Shown: positions 3,361 through 33,919 of the stretch, piece by piece
Position numbering within the stretch: position 1 is the first letter of the stretch
Layout of the letters: each line of letters starts with the position of its first letter
Assembly: GCF_963921235.1 (NCBI RefSeq)
Contig: NC_086097.1
Location: forward strand, 142,292,001 to 142,356,000
From: Mobula hypostoma
Lineage: Eukaryota
DNA: 64,000 nucleotides
Direction of reading: 5' to 3'
Notes under the pieces: model-generated
Told to the model about the DNA's origin: nothing
What the model saw: only the letters and a program-made list of their open reading frames with translations
Databases searched by the model: none
Position numbers and translations under genes: made by a program

Positions 3361-5896
3361 CAGGAAATTAGAAATGTGTGCAATAAAGGAACAGCAGTTA
3401 TAATGGGTGACTTCAATCTACATGTAGACTGGGTGAACCAAATTGGTAAAGGTGCTGAGGAAGAGGATTTCTTGGAATGTATGCGGGATGGTTTTTTGAA
3501 CCAACATGTCGAGGAACCGACTAGAGAGCAGGCTATTCTGGACTGGGTTTTGAGCAATGAGGAAGGGTTAATTAGCGATCTTGTCGTGAGAGGTCCCTTG
3601 GGTAAGAGTGACCATAATATGGTGGAATTCTTCATTAACATGGAGAGTGACATAGTTAATTCAGAAACAAAGGTTCTGAACTTAAAGAGGGGTAACTTTG
3701 AAGGTATGAGTCGTGAATTAGCTAAGATAGACTGGCAAATGACACTTAAAGGATTGACGGTGGATATGTAATGGCAGGCATTTAAAGGTTGCATGGATGA
3801 ACTACAACAATTGTTCATCCCAGTTTGGCAAAAGAATAAATCAAGGAAGGTAGTGCACCCGTGGCTGACAAGAGAAATTAGGGATAGTATCAATTCCAAA
3901 GAAGTAGCATATAAATTAGCCAGAGAAAGTGGCTCACCTGAGGACTGGGAGAAATTCAGAGTTCAGCAGAGGAGGACAAAGGGCTTAATTAGGAAGGGGA
4001 AAAAAGATTATGAGAGAAAACTGGCAGAGAACATAAAAACAGACTGTAAAAGCTTTTATAGATATGTAAAAAGGAAAAGACTGATAAAGACAAATGTAGG
4101 TCCCCTGCAGACAGAAACAGGTGAATTGATTATGGGGAGCAAGGACATGGCAGACCAATTGAATAATTACTTTGGTTCTGTCTTCACTAAGGAGGACATA
4201 AATAATCTTCCAGAAATAGTAAGGGACAGAGAGCCCAGTGAGATGGAGGAACTGAGTGAAATACATGTTAGTAGGGAAGTGGTGTTAGGTAAATTGAAGG
4301 GATTGAAGGCAGATAAATCCCCAGGGCCAGATGGTCTGCATCCCAGAGTGCTTAAGGAAGTAGCCCAAGAAATAGTGGATGCATTAGTGATAATTTTTCA
4401 AAACTCGTTAGATTCTGGACTAGTTCCTGAGGATTGGAGGGTGGTTAATGTAACCCCACTTTTTAAAAAAGGAGGGAGAGAGAAACCGGGGAATTATAGG
4501 CCGGTTAGCCTAACGTCGGTGGTGGGGAAACTGCTGGAGTCAGTTATCAAGGATGTGATAACAGCACATTTGGAAAGCGGTGAAATGATCGGACAAAGTC
4601 AGCATGGATTTGTGAAAGGAAAATCATGTCTGACGAATCTCATAGAATTTTTTGAGGATGTAACTAGTAGAGTGGATAGGGGAGAACCAGTGGATGTGGT
4701 ATATTTGGATTTTCAAAAGGCTTTTGACAAGGTCCCACACAGGAGATTAGTGTGCAAACTTAAAGCACACGGTATTCAGGGTATGGTATTGATGTGGATA
4801 GAGAATTGGTTGGCAGACAGGAAGCAAAGAGTGGGAATAAACGGGACCTTTTCAGAATGGCAGGCGGTGACTAGTGGGGTACCGCAAGGCTCAGTGCTGG
4901 GACCCCAGTTGTTTACAATATATATTAATGACTTGGATGAGGGAATTAAATGCAGCATCTCCAAGTTTGCAGATGACACGAAGCTGGGTGGCAGTGTTAG
5001 CAGTGAGGAGGATGCTAAGAGGATGCAGGGTGACTTGGATAGGTTGGGTGAGTGGGCAAACTCATGGCAGATGCAATTTAATGTGGATAAATGTGAAGTT
5101 ATCCACTTTGGTGGCAAAAATAGGAAAACAGATTATTATCTGAATGGTGGCCGATTAAGAAAAGGGGAGGTGCAACGAGACCTGGGTGTTATTATACACC
5201 AGTCATTGAAAGTGGGCATGCAGGTACAGCAGGCGGTGGAAAAGGCGAACGGTATGCTGGCATTTATAGCGAGAGGATTCGAGTACAGGAGCAGGGAGGT
5301 ACTACTGCAGTTGTACAAGGCCTTGGTGAGACCACACCTGGAGTATTGTGTGCAGTTTTGGTCCCCTAATCTGAGGAAAGACATCTTTGCCATAGAGGGA
5401 GTACAAAGAAGGTTCACCAGATTGATTCCTGGGATGGCAGGTCTTTCATATGAAGAAAGACTGGATGAACTGGGCTTGTACTCGTTGGAATTTAGAAGAT
5501 TGAGGGGGGATCTGATTGAAACGTATAAGATCCTAAAGGGATTGGACAGGCTAGATGCGGGAAGATTGTTCCCGATGTTGGGGAGGTCCAGAACGAGGGG
5601 TCACAGTTTGAGGATAGAGGGGAAGCCTTTTAGGACCGAGATTAGGAAAAACTTCTTCACACAGAGAGTGGTGAATCTGTGGAATTCTCTGCCACAGCAA
5701 ACTGTTGAGGCCGGTTCATTGGCTGTGTTTAAGAGGAAGTTAGATATGGCCCTTGTGGCTACAGGGGTCAGGGGGTATGGAGGGAAGGCTGGGTTCTGAG
5801 TTGGATGATCAGCCATGATCATAATAAATGGCGGTGCAGGCTCGAAGGGCCGAATGGCCTACTCCTGCACCTATTTTCTATGTTTCTATGTTTCTA
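3361..5896 (+). mobile_element. Young, 5'-truncated CR1 LINE nested in the opposite-strand CR1
   Basis: ORFs 3376-3771 and 3793-5799 are in the same frame, separated by one TAA. Tail TTTCTATGTTTCTATGTTTCTA. The host reading frame rejoins exactly across the insert (TGTATCCA|AGCTCTCAG). Confidence 0.95.
3793..5799 (+). CDS. CR1 ORF2 reverse transcriptase region, 668 aa uninterrupted (endonuclease N-terminus missing)
   Basis: PGPDGLHPRVLKE, NYRPVSLTS, LDFQKAFDKVPH, GVPQGSVLGP, KFADDTK and RPHLEYCVQFWSP motifs. Confidence 0.9.
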   Translation: MDELQQLFIPVWQKNKSRKVVHPWLTREIRDSINSKEVAYKLARESGSPEDWEKFRVQQRRTKGLIRKGKKDYERKLAENIKTDCKSFYRYVKRKRLIKTNVGPLQTETGELIMGSKDMADQLNNYFGSVFTKEDINNLPEIVRDREPSEMEELSEIHVSREVVLGKLKGLKADKSPGPDGLHPRVLKEVAQEIVDALVIIFQNSLDSGLVPEDWRVVNVTPLFKKGGREKPGNYRPVSLTSVVGKLLESVIKDVITAHLESGEMIGQSQHGFVKGKSCLTNLIEFFEDVTSRVDRGEPVDVVYLDFQKAFDKVPHRRLVCKLKAHGIQGMVLMWIENWLADRKQRVGINGTFSEWQAVTSGVPQGSVLGPQLFTIYINDLDEGIKCSISKFADDTKLGGSVSSEEDAKRMQGDLDRLGEWANSWQMQFNVDKCEVIHFGGKNRKTDYYLNGGRLRKGEVQRDLGVIIHQSLKVGMQVQQAVEKANGMLAFIARGFEYRSREVLLQLYKALVRPHLEYCVQFWSPNLRKDIFAIEGVQRRFTRLIPGMAGLSYEERLDELGLYSLEFRRLRGDLIETYKILKGLDRLDAGRLFPMLGRSRTRGHSLRIEGKPFRTEIRKNFFTQRVVNLWNSLPQQTVEAGSLAVFKRKLDMALVATGVRGYGGKAGF

Positions 5897-7635: not shown

Positions 7636-9295
7636 TCCCTCAATGTCGCATAAAACAAAGGAGCTGGTTGTAGACTACAGCAGGAATGAAGGCAGGCTAA
7701 CCCCTATTGACATCAATGGATCTAGGTTTGAGAGGGTGAACAGGTTAAGTTCCTCAGCATACACATCACCAAGGATCTCATATGGTCTGTACATATCAGC
7801 TGTGTGGTGAAAAAAAGCACAACAGCACCTCTTTCACCTCAGATGATTGAATTAGTTTGACATGAGTCCTCAAATCCTTGGGAATTTCTATGAGGGCATA
7901 ATTGAGAGCATCCCGACTGGCTTAACACTGCCTGGTATGGGAACTTCACTTCCCTCAATCGCAGGACTCTGCAGCAAGTGGTGCGGACAGCCCAGTGCAT
8001 CTGTAGATGTGAACTTCAGACTATTCAGGACATTTACAGAAACAGGTGCATGAGAAAGGCCCGAAGGATCATTAGGGACCCAAGTCAACCCAACTACAAA
8101 CTGTTCCAGCTGCTGCCATGCAGGAAACAGAACCACAGCATTAAAGCCAGGACCAACAGGTTCCAGGACAGCTTCTTCCACCAGGCCATCAGACTGATTA
8201 ATTCACACTGATACAATTGTACTGGCAGGACTTGAATGCTATTACCTCTTACAAAGTGAAACCAAGCGAAACGGGTGACAAACAAGGCTTCGCTCCCAGA
8301 TGAACTCTATGCTTTCTATGTTTGTTTTAACTATCAGAACATGGAGGAACCTTCACAAATTCCCACAGTCCCCGATGACCCTATGATTTCAGTCTCTGAG
8401 GCCAAGGTGAGAGCATCCTTCAGGAGGGTGAACACAAGGAAAGCATCTGGCCCAGATGGGGTACCTGTCTGAGTACTGAACCCCTGTGCTGATCAACTGA
8501 CTGGAATGTTCACTGATACCTCTGGCCTCTTGCATCAGCAGTCTGAGGTACCCATCTGCATCAAGCAGGCTTCAATTATACCGTGCCAATGAAGAACATG
8601 GTGACCTGCCTCAAGGACCGTCATCTAGTGGTATTTATATCCACTGTGAATAAGTGCTTTGAGAGGCTGGTGATGAAACATAGCAACACCTGTCTGAAGT
8701 GACTTGGATTCACTCCAATTTGCCTAAAGCACAACAGGTCTACAACAGATGCCATTTCATTGGCTCTTCACTCAACCCTGAAACATCTAGACAGCAAAGG
8801 TGTGTACATTAGTACCTTTATCAACTACAGCTCAGCATTCAACACTATCATCCCCTCAACACTAATCAATAACCTTCAAGGCCTTGGCCTCAATACCTCC
8901 TTGTGGAATTAGATCCTTGATTGCATCACTTCTAGACCCCAGTCAGATCGGATTGACAACATCTCCTCCACATTCTCCACCACAAGGCAGTGTGCTTAGC
9001 CTCCTGTTGTACTCGCTTTATACTTATGACTGTGAGACTACGCACAGCTCCAATGCCATATTTAAGTTTGCTGACAACACCACCATCATTGCCCGAATCA
9101 AAGGTGATAATGAATCTGCACATAGGAGGGAGATTGGAGGAGACTTCCGGTAGCGCTCATGGAGTGAAGTCGCGTTCTTGACTCGCTCCATTACCTCTGA
9201 GTTTTTTTTTCTCTATGGTCAGCTATACTTTAATTAACCATTAAGGCATCAATTTTTACAATACTTTGAATTAAACTGAATTCTCTGACAATTGG

Positions 9296-10195
9296 ATGAT
9301 ACTTAGATCTGCTATGTCTAAGAACGGGAAAAACGGCAAGGATGGTAAACCTCCGGTTAAACCGAAAGCTACGGATCTCCCCCCGACTGAATCACCGGTG
9401 ACTTTGAAAGCAATATCGGAGTTAATTCAGAGGGAAATTTCAACCTCTGTTAGGGAGATGATTCGTACGGAAATTGCAGGCTCTGTTAAAGACCTGATTC
9501 ATACGGAAATCTCAACTAATTTCCAGAAAATTGCCGATTTAATTGATAAGATGCAAACATGTATTGCGGAACATCAGTCGGCTATATCTGATCTTCAAAA
9601 ATTCGCGCAACAAAGTGAGCTTAAGATGGGGAAAATCGAAGAAACAATTAATGTAATGAAGAAGAAACTTGACTTTTTGACTTTTAAAAACTCTGACTTG
9701 GAATCTAGAATGCGACGGCAGAATTTACGAATGATTGGCGTGAGGGAAGCTGTTGAAGCCAACAACCCCATGAAATATTTCTCTCAACTTTTAAAAGATG
9801 CATTCCCTACTGTATTTCCTGACCAACCACCGCTACTGGATCGTGTTCACAGAATCCCATCATACTCGTCTAGGTCAGATAGACCTAGGCATGTTATTTT
9901 ACGTTTTCATTATTTTCAAGACAAGGAGAGACTGTTTCGATTCGCTCGATCTAAAGGTTTCATTGATTTTTCGGATCTTAAGTTCCGATTCGTGGAAGAT
10001 TTCAGTAAACCAATCTGGGACCAATGGGTCCGTTACAGATCCGTGATGTCGGAATTCTATAAGATGGATTTAAGACCAGCGCTGCTGTACCCTGCACGTC
10101 TAAGGATTCGCATGTTAGATGGAGCCCTTCGTTTTTTTGATTCTCCATCGGATACCCAGAGTTATCTGGATCAACTTTCATCTTCAACATCTTAA
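9296..10195 (+). CDS. L1 ORF1p (Transposase_22-like: coiled coil, RRM, CTD), intact 299 aa
   Basis: DLESRMRRQNLRMIGVRE, LDRVHR, PRHVILRF and LLYPARLRI motifs. Confidence 0.92.
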   Translation: MILRSAMSKNGKNGKDGKPPVKPKATDLPPTESPVTLKAISELIQREISTSVREMIRTEIAGSVKDLIHTEISTNFQKIADLIDKMQTCIAEHQSAISDLQKFAQQSELKMGKIEETINVMKKKLDFLTFKNSDLESRMRRQNLRMIGVREAVEANNPMKYFSQLLKDAFPTVFPDQPPLLDRVHRIPSYSSRSDRPRHVILRFHYFQDKERLFRFARSKGFIDFSDLKFRFVEDFSKPIWDQWVRYRSVMSEFYKMDLRPALLYPARLRIRMLDGALRFFDSPSDTQSYLDQLSSSTS

Positions 10196-10915
10196 TTGCC
10201 TTTTTTTAATTATCTCCGTTGATCGGAGGCTGTGAATTGGTTGGTTTTAACTTTTCTGTGCCCTATTTGGGCAGAAAAGTTTACTTTTGATTTCTTAATA
10301 TGGCTGCTAAACTTTCTTTTTAACTGTGTCATTTCTTTCTTTTCCCAGGGGATTCTGGGTGGTTACTTCCCTTTTGTCATCTTACGTATTTCCTGTGCGG
10401 CCTTAAATTTTGTAGTTTTTTTTTAAATTTTATTCTGTTTTGCTTTTTATAATCACTTTATGTTAATAATCCTATTTTTTTTGTTGCTGTGTCTATTCAT
10501 GAGTTTGAGGTTTATTGTGGTTTTTTTTAATATATATTTTCCGGCTTTTGTTCTGTTCTGTGTGTATTTTAATTGAGCTAACTTTTTTTTACTTATTTTT
10601 TTACTGTTTTACAATTAGCTGATCCTTTTCATATTTATACCTTTTTTTTAGGGAGCGTATACCGGAAGTCATGGGGGTAGTTTTAGCGCTTGCTTCTTTC
10701 TGGCGGGTCTGCTTTAGATTTTGCCTTGGGGTCTTGGGGTGGGGGGTGGTGGGAGGGGCTTCACGTTTTAGTTTGTTTCTCTTTGGGCTATATACATTAT
10801 TGAAGTACTGGTTGCGTCCTTTTCCCCGGTATCTTTTGTATGTTCTGTTTCCTCTCCGGGTTTGTGGGTCGCGACTATTGTCAATCCTCCTTGTTGTGGG
10901 TTGACTTTAGGATTT

Positions 10916-13900
10916 ATGGAGTCTATTATTAATTTTGTCTCCTGGAATACTAATGGTCTTAATCATCCTATTAAAAGGAAAAAAGTTTTTAAAGTGTTCC
11001 GGAGACTTAAAGCACAAATTTTATTTTTACAAAGACCCATGTACGGAGGGGGGACAGACTACGTTTTTTCAAATTCTGGAAGGGACAACAATTTCATTCG
11101 AACTCCAATGCTAAGATTCGAGGCGTCTCTATTTTTATAGATTCCTCAGTTACTTTTATACAACAGGATATTATCTCTGATCCGAATGGTAGATTTTTAT
11201 TGGTTAGTGGTTTACTATTTAATAAAAAAGTAGTTTTGGTTAATGTTTATGCTCCTAATATGGATTGTCCGGAATTTTATAAATCATTGTTTGATCAGTT
11301 TCCGAATTTGAACGAGTTTTCATTGATTTGGGGCGGAGATCTTAATACCTGTTTATCTCCAGCTTTGGACCGTTCGGCTCCTTTACGGACTTTACCTAAT
11401 AAATCTGCAAATTTGATTAATTTTTTCCTTTCTGATTCTGGGTCGACGGACATTTGGCGTTTTCTGCATCCTCAGGAAAAAGATTTTTCCTTCTTTTCAC
11501 ATGTTCATCATTCCTATTCAAGAATTGATTATTTTTTCATTGATTCTCGTCTCATTCCTTCAGTGATTAAATGTGATTATGATTCTATAACCATTTCGGA
11601 TCATGCTCCACTTAAGCTTTCTATTAAAATTATGGCCAATATACCAAACAATAGACAATGGCGTTTTAATTCGCTGTTGCTTCAGGACTCGGACTTTGTT
11701 AATTTTATGAATGAACAGATTGAGCTTTTTTTTTTAACAATTAACCATACAGAAGATATTTCGGTTAACACTCTTTGGGACACTTTTAAAGCCTATATTC
11801 GGGGTCAGATTATTTCGTATTCCGTTGCTTTGAGGAAGAAACAGAAGCAGGAGGAGATGGCAATTGTGGACAAGATTAAAGAAATTGATAAGAAATATGT
11901 TATGGCTCCTTCTGAGGAGCTATACAAACAAAGAACTGAACTTCAAATGGAACACAGTTTACTACTCTCGTCCTCGATTGTAAACCAATTAAAGAAAACA
12001 AGAAGTGATTTTTATGTTCACAGTGATAAAATTGGCAAGCTGCTGGCTAATCAATTGAAATCTAATTATGTTAAATCTCAAATCAATCAGATTTATAACC
12101 AAAATGATCGATTGATATTGGATCATGTGGGGATTAATCAAACCTTTTGTGATTTTTATTCTTCTTTATATCAATCAGAGTCTCCTCGAGATTCTAAATA
12201 TATGAATGATTTTTTAGATAAGTTAGACTTCCCTCAGATTTCACAGGATATGTCTTCTTTATTAGATACTTCCATTACAATGGATGAGATTAAGAATGTT
12301 ATTTTTTCTATGAATCTGGGGAAAGCTCCTGGCCCTGATGGGTTTACCGTTGAATTTTATAAATGTTTTGCTTCTTTATTGATTCCTTGGCTCTATAAGG
12401 TTTTTGAGGCTTCTTTGAAACTTGGTAAACTTCCGGAATCTTTTAATAGAGCATCAATTTCTTTAATACTAAAGAAGGATAAAGACCCTGCTCAGTGTGC
12501 ATCTTATAGACCAATATCTTTATTAAATGTTGATTCTAAAGTTTTTTCTAAGTTATTAGCAAATAGACTAGAAAAAGTACTTCCTTCTATTATTTCGGAA
12601 GACCAAACGGGTTTTATTAAAGGTCGTTACTCTTTTTATAATATTCGTACATTGTTAAATATCGTTTATACTCCCTCACAAAATGTTCCTGAGTGTGTTA
12701 TTTCTTTAGATGCCGAGAAAGCTTTTGATAGAGTAGAATGGCCTTATTTATTTAAGGTGCTTGAAATGTTTAATTTTAGCTTGAAATTTATATCCTGGAT
12801 TAAACTGTTATATCACTCCCCTGTAGCCTCGGTTCATACTAACTCTTTAAACTCACCTTTTTTTCCTCTCTTTCGTGGTACTCGACAAGGCTGTCCTCTT
12901 AGTCCCCTATTATTTGATATTGCATTAGAACCTCTTGCAATTGCTATTCGAGAATCTTCAAATATTACTGGGATAACTCGGGGATTAAAGTCCCATAAAT
13001 TATCACTCTATGCTGATGATTTACTTTTATATATTTCTAATCCTGAGAGATCCATTCCTGCTGTTTTAGAGTTATTAGCACAATTTGGTCTTTTCTCAGG
13101 TTATAAATTAAATCTTAGTAAGAGTGAACTTTTTCCGATTAATAAACATCTTCCCTTATATTATAAATTTCCATTTAAATTGATTAATAATTACTTTTCA
13201 TATCTTGGGATTAAAATTACTTGTAAACATAAAGATTTATTTAAGACTAACTTTTTACCATTAATAGACCATATTACTCAACTTTCATCTAAATGGTTTC
13301 CCTTATATTTAACTTTGATTGGTCATATTAATGCAGTTAAGATGTTTTTTTTGCCAAAATTTTTATATGTGTTTCAGGCATTACCAATTTTCGTTCCTAA
13401 ATCTTTTTTTGATAAAGTTGACTCTAAAATTTCTTCATTTATTTGGCAGAATAAGAATCCGAGACTGGGTAAAATACATTTACAGAAAGCTAAGAGAGAT
13501 GGAGGTTTAGCATACCTAACTTTAGATTTTATTATTGGGCTATTAATATTCGACATATGAAATTTTGGTTACTTGACCGGGACATACTATCTATTCCTAA
13601 ATGGGTAGCATTGGAATTACAATCTGTTCAGGGTTATACACTTGGTTCTATTTTAGGTTCCTCTCTTCCTTTTGATTCGAAACGCCTTAAGCAGGTCTCT
13701 AACCCGATAGTTAAATATGCTTTGCGTATTTGGTTTCAATTCAGAAAATGTTTTGATCTTAATCAATTCGGGTTAGCGATTCCTATTTTAGGTAACATAT
13801 TTTTTCCTCCCTCTTTTACGGATCGCGCTTTTCAAACTTGGAAGACTAAGGGTATTTTACGGTTTTTGGATTTATTTTTAGATGGTTCCCTTATGTCTTT

Positions 13901-14694
13901 TGAACAATTATCTAATAAATATAACTTATCAAGAATACATTTTTTTAAGATATTTACAAGTTAGAAATTTCCTAAGTACTATACTTTCTTCCTTTCCAAT
14001 GCTTCCTCCTATATATATTTTAGATTCGATAATTAACCTTAATCCATGTCAGAAAGGTGCATCGGCTATGATTTATAATATTATTATGAAACTTAGGAAA
14101 GCTCCATTTGATAAGATTAGGGTAGATTGGGAACAGGAATTGGGGCTTACCATTTCTGTGGATGATTGGGGGCAGATTTTACAATTAGTTAATACTTCCT
14201 CTATTTGTGCTAAACATTCCCTAATTCAATTTAAAGTGGTTCATAGAGCACATATGTCCTAAGATAAGTTAGCGCGTTTTTACTCGCATATTAATCCTTT
14301 CTGTGATAGATGTTCGGGGCAGATAGCCTCTTTAACTCATATGTTTTGGTCTTGCCCTACTTTGGAAACTTTTTGGAGAGATATTTTCAATATTATTTCT
14401 AAGGTATTAAATATAGATATCTCTCCTCACCCTATTACTGCTATCTTTGGACTACCTAAAATTTCTAGTAATCTTTCCCCTTCAGCCCGTAGAATGATTG
14501 CATTTCTTACTTTAATGGCGAAAAGATGTATTTTACAACATTGGAAAGAGCTTAATGCTCCAACTACCTTTTTTTGGTTTTCTCAGACGATTTTATGTTT
14601 GAATTTGGAGAAAATTAGAAGTAACCTTTATGATTCTTCATTTAAATTTGAACAGATTTGGGGACCTTTTATTCGATATTTTCATTTAATGTAA
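10916..14694 (+). pseudogene. L1 ORF2p (APE endonuclease, RT, CCHC knuckle) with 3 frameshifts (~11033, ~13513, ~13947) and 1 stop (14260-14262)
   Basis: MESIINFVSWNTNGLN, NVYAPN, GGDLN, SRIDY, SDH, YRPISLLN, QGCPLSP, YADD and CDRC..HMFWSC motifs across ORFs 10862-11140, 11200-13560, 13557-13964, 13882-14262 and 14341-14694. Confidence 0.93.
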
Positions 14695-16329
14695 TATTTA
14701 CCCTTCTTGTTTTTTTTTCACTGTTTTAATGGAGGTCGGGATTGAGGACGTGATTTTAAGTTTAACTCTGTTTGGTTTCAAGTTAGCCCATTGCTTTGCC
14801 TTGCTTTTAGTTAGCTGCACGGTGGGTTTTTTTTTTGGGGTTTTTTTTTCTTTTTTTCCATTGATATATATAAAATTTAGTATACTATTATGTTATCTTG
14901 GTTTCTTATGCTTAAATTACATTGTTTGTAGTATTTTCTTTTTGGTATTGTTATCTTTTGGAATTTTATTATACTTTAACATTGTATTAATGTTTATATG
15001 GCTTACCTTTTTTGTATACTTACTCAATAAAAAGATTTAAAAAGAAAGAAAGGAGGGAGATTGGAAATCTGAATGAGTGGTACCACAACAACAACAACAA
15101 CCTCTCCCTCGATGTCAAAAGACCAAGGAGCTGATTATTGACTTCAGGAGGAGAAAACCAGTGGTTCGTAAGACAGCCCTCATTGGGGGAATCGGAGGTG
15201 GAGAGAGTCAGCAACTTTAAATTCCTCAGTTTTATCATTTCAGAGGAACAGTCCTGGGTCCTGGGTTAGCATGTAAGCGCAATTATGAAGAAAATATGGC
15301 AGCACCTCTACTTACTTAGAAGATACCATGCTGATGCTTCACAAACTAAAACTCTGACAAATTTCTACAGATGTGTGGAGGAGAGTACTTTCGTTGCATC
15401 ATGGCCTGGTATGGAAACATCCATGCCCTTGTTTAGAAAATCCTACAAAAAGAAGTGGATATAGTTAAGTCCATCATGGGTAAAGCCATTCAGCACATCT
15501 ACACAGAGTGCTGTCACAGGAACGCAGTATCCATCAAGTATCCCAATCATCCTGGCCATCTCTCTTCTCACTGCTGCCATCAGGAGTCTCAGGGCCCACA
15601 CCACCTGGTTCAGAACAGTTATTATCCTCAACCATCATGCTCTTGAACCAAAGGGGATAGCTTCACTCAATTTCACTTGCCCAATCACAGAAATGTTCCC
15701 TCTGCCTATGGACTCACTTTCAAGGACACTTATCTCATGTTCTCATTATTTATTGCTTATTTATTATCTTTTTTCTGTCTTTCATATTTGCAGTTTGTTG
15801 TCCAATCCATTCTACTGGGTGCAGTCTTCTATAGATGTTATAGTGTTTCTTTGATTTATTGTGTATGCCTGAAAGAAAACAAATGTCAGGGTTGTATATG
15901 GTGCCATATATGTACTTTGATAATAAATTTACCTTGTACTTGGTGTATGATTCAGAAAATCCAAAGGATAATGATTAAAGAAATAAGTGCAGAGGGCAAA
16001 ATAAAGACCATCTTAGCAGTGGATTCTGCCTCCTAGTATATTAGTACAAAACCAGGAAAATTAGGAACTGTGTTGTTTTAAGTCTTCACTTGAACTGTGC
16101 CGGCATAGATGCTGTATGACCAAATGACAAGGAGATAGACACAACTTTAAGCTATTTAATGAAGTAAGAGATCAAATGTACAAACATTTATGGCAGAGAG
16201 GAGAAAAAAGACCTGAAGGAAAGGTAGTAATATGGAAATGATAAACAGTCTGGGATATACAACAATAGAGTACAAAGAGCAAATCAGTGGATTAGATTAG
16301 AAAGTTACAAAGATAATCGAAGGCCTGTA

Positions 16330-31483: not shown

Positions 31484-33543
31484 AGAAACATAGAAAATAG
31501 GAGCAGGAGTAGGCCATTCGGCCCTTCGAGCCTGTACCGCCATTCAGTATGATCATGGCTGATCATCCAACTCAGAACCCTGTACCTGCCTTCCCCCCAC
31601 ATACCCCCTGATCTCTTTAGCCACAAGGGCCATATCTAACTCCCTCTTAAATATAGCCAATGAACTGGCCTCAACTGTTTCCTGTGGCAGAAAATTCCAC
31701 AGATTCACCACTCTCTGTGTGAAGAAGTTTTTCCTAATCTCGGTCCTAAAAGGCTTCCCCTTTATCCTCAAACTGTGACCCCTCATTCTGGACTTCCTCA
31801 ACATCGGGAACAATCTTCCTGCATCTAGCCTGTCCAATCCCTTTAGGATTTTATACGTTTCAATCAGATCCCCCCTCAATCTTCTAAATTCCAGTGAGTA
31901 TAAGCCTAGTTCATCCAGTCTTTCATCATATGAAAGTCCTGTCATCCCAGGAATCAATCTGGTGAACCTTCTTTGTACTCCCTCTATGGCAAGGATGTCT
32001 TTCCTCAGATTAGGGGACCAAAACTGCACACAATACTCCAGGTGTGGTCTCAGCAAGGCCTTGTACAACTGCAGTAGTACCTCCCTGCTCCTGTACTTGA
32101 ATCTTCTTGCTATAAATGCCAGCATACCATTCGCCTTTTTCACCGCCTGCTGTACCTGCATGCCCACTTTCAATGACTGGTTTACAATGACACCCAGGTC
32201 TCGTTGCACCTCCCCTTTTCCTAATTGGCCACCATTCAGATAATAATCTGTTTTCCTGTTTTTACCACCAAAGTGGATAACTTCACATTTATCCACACTA
32301 AATTGCATCTGCCATGAATTTACCCACTCACCTAACCTATCCAAGTCACCCTGCATCCTCTTAGCATCCTCCTCACAGCTAACACTGCCACCCAGCTTCG
32401 TGTCATCCGTAAACTTGGAGATGCTGCATTTAATTCCCTCATCCAAGTCATTAATATATATTGTAAACAACTGGGGTCCCAGCACTGAGCCTTGCGGTAT
32501 CCCACTAGTCACTGCCTGCCATTCTGAAAAGGTCCCGTTTATTCCCACTCTTTGCTTCCTGTCTGCCAACCAATTCTCTATCCACATCAATACCATACCC
32601 TGAATACCGTGTGCTTTAAGTTTGCACACTAATCTCCTGTGTGGGACCTTGTCAAAAGCCTTTTGAAAATCCAAATATACCACATCCACTGGTTCTCCCC
32701 TATCCACTCTACTAGTTACATCCTCAAAAAATTCTATGAGATTCGTCAGACATGATTTTCCTTTCACAAATCCATGCTGACTTTGTCCGATGATTTCACC
32801 GCTTTCCAAATGTGCTGTTATCACATCTTTGATAACTGACTCTAGCAGTTTCCCCACCACCGATGTTAGGCTAACCGGTCTATAATTCCCTGGTTTCCCT
32901 CTCCCTCCTTTTTTTAAAAAGGTGGGGTTACATTAGCCACTCTCCAATCCTCAGGAACTAGTCCAGAATCTAACGAGTTTTGAAAAATTATCACTAATGC
33001 ATCCACTATTTCTTGGGCTACTTCCTTAAGCACTCTGGGATGCAGACCATCTGGCCCTGGGGACTTATCTGCCTTCAATCCCTTCAATTTACTTAACACC
33101 ACTTCCCTACTAACATGTATTTCCCTCAGTTCCTCCATCTCACTGGACCCTCTGTCCCCTACTATTTCCGGAAGATTATTTATGTCCTCCTTAGTGAAGA
33201 CAGAACCGAAGTAATTATTCAATTGGTCTGCCATGTCCTTGCTCCCCATAATCAATTCACCTGTTTCTGTCTGTAGGGGACCTACATTTGTCTTAACCAA
33301 TCTTTTTCTTTTCACATATCTTTAAAAGCTTTTATAGTCAGTTTTTATGTTCCCTGCCAGTTTTCTCTCAATTTCTTTTTCCCCCTTCCTAATTAAGCCT
33401 TTTGTCCTCCTCTGCTGAATTCTGAATTTCTCCCAGTCCTCAGGTGAGCCACTTTTTCTGGCTAATTTGTATGCTTCTTCTTTGGAATTGATACTATCCC
33501 TAATTTCCCTTGTCAGCCATGGGTGCACTACCTTCCTTGATTT
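31484..33543 (-). mobile_element. Young 5'-truncated CR1, same family as 3361-5896
   Basis: ORFs 31553-32860, 32914-33315 and 33322-33570 are nearly identical in protein sequence to the 668-aa ORF. Tail AGAAACATAGAAAATAG at ~31484. Confidence 0.95.
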
Positions 33544-33919
33544 ATAATAATATGCTGACCAATGCAACACTGGGCAACTTAAAGATGTCTTATCTCCTCA
33601 AATTATTCCCCAAGCCAGTAACCACTTCGACCAATTTCAGTTGGATTGACCTGCCATTCAAATTGGATAATACTCCCCCATCTCGTCTCACATAAAGACT
33701 GGGCACTCAAGTGAGATATTAGGTGGTAGTACTTAAATTACAGACCTCAATTCTGGGTCTACAAGGTCCAGCCAAAAAATCTGAATGCCTGTACTAACCA
33801 GTTATTTTGGTAAAGGACAGCAGAGAAAGGACCATTGAATAATTAATGTAGATAAAGGTAGTCATTTTAACTTCATGTCAGACAACAATAGAAAAACTTA
33901 TTTCCCCACACATTCCACT

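Follow-up and report, generated by a model that had tools for sequence, protein, structure and literature searches.

Introduction

How the retrotransposon L1 makes the protein of its second open reading frame (ORF2p) is a long-standing question, and elements with a long spacer between their two open reading frames (ORFs) fit neither of the leading models well. For mammalian L1 and for SART1, translation of ORF2 is attributed to termination-reinitiation (PMC5972666), and for L1s from fish, frogs and lizards, which possess long intergenic regions, a cripavirus-like internal ribosome entry site (IRES) was proposed, with no shared spacer structure being found (PMC5381506). Work with a megabat L1 documented that removal of spacer AUGs lowers retrotransposition 3.3-fold and shuffling 8.8-fold, the element having been reassembled for these assays with its native untranslated regions (UTRs) left out (PMC4072516). 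A further route to a downstream frame is known from cauliflower mosaic virus (CaMV), rice tungro bacilliform virus (RTBV), rice tungro spherical virus (RTSV) and prototype foamy virus, for which a ribosome shunt was described that depends on a short ORF (sORF) ending before a long-range stem (PMC5902531). The element considered in the following is an L1 of Mobula hypostoma, which lies in a stretch of 64,000 nt of contig NC_086097.1 (positions 142,292,001 to 142,356,000 of assembly GCF_963921235.1; the whole stretch is referred to as the window).

Comparison of this element with its relatives revealed three shared parts, namely a 5'-proximal sORF, a complementarity between 5'UTR and spacer which encloses ORF1, and an upstream ORF (uORF) in the spacer which ends at ORF2 and is termed relay uORF, together with an enrichment of AUGs beside the 3' arm of the complementarity. 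By analogy, this layout resembles that of the pararetroviral shunt, and we suggest, with a probability of roughly 0.6 and on the basis of sequence comparison, that ribosomes reach ORF2 of long-spacer L1s by a shunt which depends on the sORF and is followed by a relay. With mammalian L1 and SART1 the arrangement shares the closeness of an upstream stop to the ORF2 AUG (PMC5972666), but the upstream frame is ORF1 there and a separate, unconserved uORF in the fish-type elements. The fish, frog and lizard L1s of PMC5381506 belong to the same element class, as they possess a short 5'UTR with a GACTTCCGG-type start and a T-rich spacer of 257-1032 nt, yet no mention of an sORF, a uORF or a 5'UTR-spacer pairing was found in the accessible text of that report.

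The element of the window and its relatives

The element is a full-length, decayed L1 of the fish type, bounded at both ends by target-site duplications (TSDs) of 15 nt. Its annotated parts are as follows.

9139..15050, + strand: L1 element, with ORF1 (Transposase_22), ORF2 (RVT_1), TSD, AATAAA at 15026-15031 and an A-rich tail
9124..9138, + strand: 5' TSD, 15 nt, in a host repeat; recurs at 15051-15065
15051..15065, + strand: 3' TSD, copy of 9124-9138
9296..10195, + strand: ORF1, 299 aa, reading frame open
10196..10915, + strand: inter-ORF spacer, 720 nt
10916..14694, + strand: ORF2 (endonuclease-reverse transcriptase, EN-RT), disrupted in the window copy through frameshifts plus a stop codon

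ORF1 matches the L1 RRM/Transposase_22 domain (E 1.2e-9), ORF2 matches RVT_1 (E 4.9e-39) with a weak further match to Exo_endo_phos, and the identity of ORF2 to that of fish L1s amounts to 47-71%. TSD, poly(A) signal plus tail and the conserved 5' start assign the element to the fish-type L1 clade, for whose fish and other vertebrate members the GACTTCCGG start motif and the long T-rich spacer are already known traits (PMC5381506). The closest named ORF2 relative (71%) is P0159, a gene model from a stingray. It is annotated as "IQ calmodulin-binding motif-containing protein 1 isoform", carries a reverse transcriptase (RT) and is a probable exonised or misannotated L1. No second copy of the L1 was found within the 64-kb window; the element lies between the members of an inverted pair of 2-kb repeats, 95% identical and about 26 kb apart (3836-5887 and 31484-33545).

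Relatives were gathered by means of an ORF2 alignment, whereby 79 loci were kept of 412 confirmed stretches in metagenome contigs and supplemented by 5 genome-contig and 4 viral-contig loci. These 88 loci and the window yielded 45 elements with ORF1 and an ORF2 start; the 5' start could be recognised in 35 of them (in 34 through the motif, in 1 by manual assignment) but not in the other 10. The analysis of pairing and sORF excluded L072 (35-nt spacer) and 5 near-duplicates and thus covered, besides the window, 28 families. The latter are deeply diverged, as one pair shares 71% and all others at most 62%, with ORF2 DNA being about 50-60% identical; their 5' starts are of the ETS, E-box and GC type and their spacers measure between some 430 and 1280 nt. 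An alignment of ORF1 proved too variable for scanning, and scans of viral contigs with ORF1 and with single-protein RT gave no matches.

Three observations were made beside this set. L072 (3220-3334) is a fish-type L1 with 35 nt from the ORF1 stop to ORF2, a shortened ORF1 match and a retained sORF, and its short spacer may reflect an internal deletion. An L1-like RT (37-42% identity) occurs in four contigs of a viral collection (L001-L004), three of them about 190-210 kb long. A near full-length fish-type L1 (L084) lies within a bacterial metagenome-assembled genome (MAG) record, likely as host contamination.

A short frame at the 5' end

Within the first 45 nt, the first AUG opens a frame of 1-5 codons in 27 of the 28 families, as compared to 2.7 expected under the null (maximum 8 in 1000), and an AUG of any kind is present in 28/28 families versus 13.3. 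The position of this AUG ranges from +11 to +28 and all three stop codons occur, while the stops cluster at +23..+32, with one clade at +38..+42. Since the stops are clustered despite a moving AUG and the use of all three stop codons, a translation event is favoured over a fixed DNA motif. A purine resides at -3 of the sORF AUG in 24/28 families, and in 14/28 the top-ranked arm of the 5'UTR-spacer pairing begins 3-22 nt past the sORF stop. Human L1 is likewise said to carry a short upstream ORF, an observation ascribed to Dmitriev in 2007.

Inspection by eye of consensus sequences in the PMC5381506 supplement identified a short sORF in 17/17 zebrafish, 11/12 frog and 2/3 long-spacer lizard elements, and longer 5' frames in lizard clade 1, whose spacer is minimal or absent. 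In supplement S1 of the same source, the AUG of the YY1 site opens a frame of 3-4 codons, often ending Glu-stop, in 12/14 mammalian consensus sequences, rat and mouse being without it. As a separate observation, the 5'UTRs of L008-L067 and of the window (9167-9172) repeatedly contain GACG/GTCG around +30 and GCTCC around +45. The former motif sits at the position expected for a downstream promoter element.

Complementarity of the 5'UTR to its own spacer

Complementarity was scored between the first 100 nt and the reverse complement of the whole spacer (28 families, window excluded), the scoring having been tightened once, before any test, as its first version was too permissive. The cognate score was 26.4 versus 21.7 for non-cognate combinations, the own spacer ranked top in 10/28 families, and the observed pairing was reached in 0 of 100000 permutations. 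Among as many permutations each, controls reached their score in 85331 (direct repeat), 98046 (ORF1), 73728 (ORF1 query), 4198 (first 600 nt of ORF2) and 17163 cases (ORF2 region 1500-2100); for parts of the spacer the numbers were 27931 (upstream of -360) and 82665 (last 150 nt). The cognate signal persists when scored by duplex energy (0/20000) and against the shuffled own spacer, and it outlasts removal of the best 8 (p 0.002) or best 10 families (p 0.026). It locates to UTR positions +35..+66 and +61..+100 and is absent across families from +1..+24 (p 0.31). As documented by the cognate and non-cognate tests, the arm sequences are unrelated among families while the structure is kept. Strong arms are present, for instance, in L009, L012 and L008. 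Between L016 and L021 one C-G/U-A double change was found in the helix, and between L025 and L026 the helix is maintained through several changes, some by G-U. A test for the pairing strand by G-U pairs remained without significance (30 GU versus 12 AC, background 64%, p 0.20). Where no 5' start had been recognised, a clear arm was not found either (of 9 such loci 6 could be tested, and the best ranks were 4 of 29).

The sequence-only reading of the window had proposed a long-range RNA helix around ORF1, with its 5' arm at the very terminus of the element. On comparison, this inference and the uORF-ORF2 relay tied to it withstood the refuting conditions that had been set for them, and cognate pairing by unrelated arms in 28 other families supports the helix as such; the terminal position of the arm applies to the window copy, while relatives usually employ +35..+66 and some +61..+100. 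In the accessible supplement of PMC5381506, uncontrolled inspection by eye gave a match about 200-330 nt ahead of ORF2 for the zebrafish consensus sequences 13A, 13B, 13C, 13D, 16B, 10B, 7C, 12A and 12B, a weak one for L1-8 and none for 11Aa, and such a spacer match also for frog L1-11, 15, 17, 18, 35 and 38, out of 12. The spacers printed in supplement S4 for zebrafish L1-16B and frog L1-29 seemingly extend into the ORF2 endonuclease, so that their listed lengths are too long.

The best 3' site lies 160-350 nt ahead of ORF2 in 23/28 families versus 35% of 756 non-cognate pairs; this interval was set after the hits were seen, unlike the whole-spacer test. Arm and uORF start are 0-50 nt apart in 8/13 elements (p 0.003, window included). 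At -360..-150, 131 AUGs were counted versus 96.8 expected, and AUGs are not depleted in the spacer after ORF1 (198 versus 185). Enrichment beside the 3' arm without depletion after ORF1 favours landing over scanning. These findings bear on a model of serial reinitiation, in which ribosomes would scan the spacer after ORF1 and translate the uORF and then ORF2, the helix serving RNP folding, packaging or first-strand cDNA pairing. The pairing strand not being fixed statistically would suit it, as would the fact that the AUG effect of the megabat spacer arose without a native 5'UTR (PMC4072516). However, AUGs are not scarcer than expected in the upstream part of the spacer, and the zone of the 3' arm beside the uORF start is fixed despite the wide range of spacer lengths, which renders serial reinitiation rather improbable.

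A proposed relay frame ending at ORF2

The relay uORF was defined as an AUG frame of at least 40 codons with its stop at -20..+30 of the ORF2 AUG, an interval set after a first look. The test set comprised 49 loci with an ORF2 start and 350 nt upstream (8 distant loci had been excluded beforehand and 4 lacked an assignable start), and removal of 7 duplicates left 41 families besides the window. A relay uORF is present in 34/41 of these, while block shuffles gave 4.1 (maximum 10 in 300), so that the layout of a uORF ending at ORF2, which had been read from the window alone, recurs in other families. Shifting the anchor 60-200 nt upstream yielded 0-4 of 35-41, as compared to 29/41 when the unshifted anchor was restricted to an equally shortened span; for the antisense strand the count was 1/41.

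In 35 elements, window included, the relay stop lies at -14..+28 of the ORF2 AUG, that is, within the proximity expected for termination-reinitiation. The stop frames are distributed 1/16/18 of 35, with both alternative frames being used, and such variation is expected for reinitiation, not for frameshifting. The relay peptides are not homologous (of 35 compared by blastp, just one pair matched, and weakly) and that of the window has no Pfam match. A function of the peptide was considered and dismissed, the peptides being unconserved and equally hydrophobic in all frames, a property that simply follows from the richness in U. The conserved property of the relay uORF is thus an open frame ending at ORF2, not a peptide. 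The calicivirus-type TURBS motif (UGGGA) is not enriched (4/42 versus 2.5 expected). Most relay uORFs carry a G-tract followed by a U-tract (10728-10790 in the window).

Both the relay and the 5' frame bear on a model of internal entry or tethering, according to which the spacer would recruit ribosomes to the relay uORF, either IRES-like or by cap factors bridged by the helix, with the sORF only tuning ORF1. It is consistent with this that IRES programs flag most long spacers (PMC5381506), that the relay AUG of the window lies at the cap-proximal end of the helix, and that sORFs persist in short-spacer mammals. On the other hand, the predicted IRESs lie at most 10 nt from ORF2, so that there would be no need for a uORF free of stops, a Rfam scan of 9100-11000 (E up to 1) gave no IRES family nor any other noteworthy match and no dicistrovirus-type intergenic region (IGR) IRES was recognised there, and the sORF stop-to-arm distance is narrow in 14/28 families. 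Internal entry is therefore considered unlikely.

A proposed shunt over ORF1

For the sORF-dependent shunt, the following course is suggested. A cap-loaded ribosome would first translate the sORF, after whose termination most 40S subunits would continue to ORF1, while a minority would cross the base of the long-range stem and land in the spacer. Landed ribosomes would translate the relay uORF and then start anew at ORF2, in the manner of the termination-reinitiation that has been put forward for L1 of mammals, whereby the strength of the stem would set the ORF1:ORF2 ratio. The element is a true L1 which, by analogy, may work like a pararetroviral shunt joined to termination-reinitiation; both kinds of component are known, and the element ranks as a candidate for the shunt class.

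With CaMV, RTBV, RTSV and prototype foamy virus the L1s share a 5'-proximal sORF, which in half of the families (14/28) but not in the window copy ends shortly before a strong arm of the helix, with the sequences of arm and peptide being unconserved. The likeness to RTBV and RTSV extends to a GAG before the stop, found in 11/23 L1 sORFs of 2 or more codons and within GAG UAG UCG of the viruses (PMC5902531). Differences were noted as well: the L1 shunt would bypass a whole translated gene (ORF1, >1 kb) and land on a relay uORF feeding ORF2, the gap from stop to stem is 3-22 nt in L1s versus 7-8 nt in the viruses, and the strongest helix of the window copy lies ahead of its sORF. The Pol of duck hepatitis B virus offers a further parallel as a bicistronic retroelement RNA whose RT ORF is reached by a shunt from near the 5' end (PMC5902531); there, however, landing occurs near the Pol AUG, the take-off is undefined, and no relay uORF is described in the accessible text of that source. 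As the sequence-only reading had supposed, no description of 5'UTR-spacer pairing, of a spacer relay ORF or of L1 shunting was found by full-text searches of the literature (subscription papers, Repbase/Dfam notes and preprint supplements being outside reach), and no such L1 arrangement was found in the accessible parts of PMC3894237 and PMC5203782.

Several observations weigh against the shunt. In 14/28 families, window included, no clearly top-ranked arm lies behind the sORF, and in the window copy the terminal arm precedes the sORF. When 9139-9180 is freed, the predicted refold of the window copy does not adopt the register of GCTCC (9184-9189), the UTR pairing with the G-tract 10728-10743 instead. 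The first AUG past +45 opens ORF1 in only 8/28 families, and relay AUGs lack a Kozak bias. Arm position and uORF start are not correlated (rho 0.03, or 0.28 when strong arms are taken). The two strands, sense and antisense, give similar scores, so that pairing at the RNA level is assumed. The sORF may have another job, as short-spacer L1s of mammals also carry one, and finally the families share ancestry.

The copy in the window

The copy in the window carries the following RNA features.

9142..9158, + strand: 5' arm of the terminal long-range helix, element nt 4-20, including the GACTTCCGG start motif
10653..10670, + strand: 3' arm of the terminal helix, containing ACCGGAAGT
9159..9167, + strand: 5'-proximal sORF (Met-Glu-stop), 2 codons, directly after the 5' arm
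9159..9191, + strand: local hairpin adjoining the terminal helix, enclosing the sORF and the GCTCC motif 9184-9189, which pairs with the spacer in relatives
9217..9225, + strand: inner collinear helix, 5' arm, partner 10616-10624; by itself not above chance
9245..9260, + strand: second inner helix, 5' arm, partner 10563-10579; predicted only
10625..10652, + strand: U-rich stretch, candidate landing zone between the inner and terminal 3' arms; resembles a 3' splice site (AG 10650-10651)
10671..10904, + strand: relay uORF, 77 codons, stop 11 nt ahead of ORF2
10840..10932, + strand: second AUG-initiated frame of 30 codons, which extends 17 nt into ORF2
10880..10905, + strand: 8-bp hairpin burying the uORF stop, in the fold of 10800-10930 (last 130 nt), z -3.15

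The terminal helix comprises 17 bp between element nt 4-20 and the spacer, with the relay uORF beginning immediately after the 3' arm. Arms, relay ATG (10671), 77 codons to 10904 and ORF2 ATG (10916) had all been given by the sequence-only reading and agree with the sequence; the sORF, the second AUG frame and three further spacer AUGs upstream of the relay AUG had escaped it. RNA folding, which it had proposed as a check, places all 17 pairs in the minimum-energy fold of 9139-11000, with pair probabilities of 0.64-1.0. The duplex energy is -28.0 kcal/mol (-30.9 using the first 25 nt), a strength matched by 5/2000 spacer shuffles and 1/300 whole-element block shuffles, and the duplex ranks second among 1029 sampled 25-nt element windows tested against the spacer. 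ACCGGAAGT and its complement occur once each in the 64 kb. The copy retains 6 bp of complementarity to the GCTCC site commonly used, plus the two inner helices, which do not exceed chance, since 5/28 other spacers score equally well. Helices that use the terminus were identified in the window copy, in L062 and partly in L043 and L035. The window copy is modelled as a minority variant, whose relay AUG would be docked beside the cap by the terminal helix, and this helix would have to open during cap loading.

That the window helix arose by chance or as the relic of a small inversion, with the shared features being by-products of composition or promoter motifs, is hardly credible, as all three features far exceed their composition-matched nulls; to its credit stand the p of about 0.003 for one feature selected from 64 kb, the lack of cognate signal at UTR +1..+24 across families (p 0.31) and a uORF hydrophobicity that is not frame-specific.

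Contigs from four public runs were aligned to 9100-11300. Among the 40 of 208 variants listed, 0/8 indels fall into the relay uORF, whose substitutions mostly change amino acids and create no stop; an earlier uORF stop is implied by a single loose end, seen in 2 contigs of one run. In runs of two other organisms, contig depth is low over the T-rich spacer and high again from 10654 (10654-10727). Such depth over the island would be in line with a subgenomic ORF2 message starting with the uORF, formed either by an internal ETS promoter at 10661 or by splicing to an acceptor at 10651, and the window copy indeed holds a perfect ETS-like site and a strong acceptor-like signal. Yet the ETS core is found in just 3/29 spacers, all of them in elements with ETS-type starts, a direct-repeat signal is lacking, and the terminus of L062 pairs without an ETS core; paired ETS sites with a second promoter, which the sequence-only reading had offered as its alternative, thus fail as a general rule, while in the window family the ETS site could still double as a promoter. 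Splicing was rejected as a general explanation too, for despite the strong acceptor of the window copy, acceptors near the arms are not enriched in 29 families (Fisher p 0.30, with approximate weight matrices), and no fitting joint was seen among 7 listed (contigs only). A subgenomic message is very unlikely.

Implications

The long spacer is probably the ancestral state in vertebrates. More tentatively, and at somewhat less than even odds, the ancestral vertebrate L1 may be pictured as a four-frame RNA (sORF, ORF1, relay uORF, ORF2) that shunts ribosomes over ORF1; mammals without a long spacer would have kept, as remnants, reinitiation and the 3-4-codon sORF of the YY1 site, and the seemingly inhibitory effect of long spacers would arise only because assays omit the cognate 5'UTR. 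As three exact, mutable parts recur in distant families, the question of ORF2p becomes open to simple reporter tests. If the proposed shunt holds true, a cellular retrotransposon would provide a ribosome shunt over a translated gene, an unannotated frame would be added to the L1s of fish and probably of frogs, it would become understandable why the megabat, puzzlingly, has retained a spacer termed "inhibitory", and L1 assays in which the native 5'UTR is replaced would break the control of ORF2.

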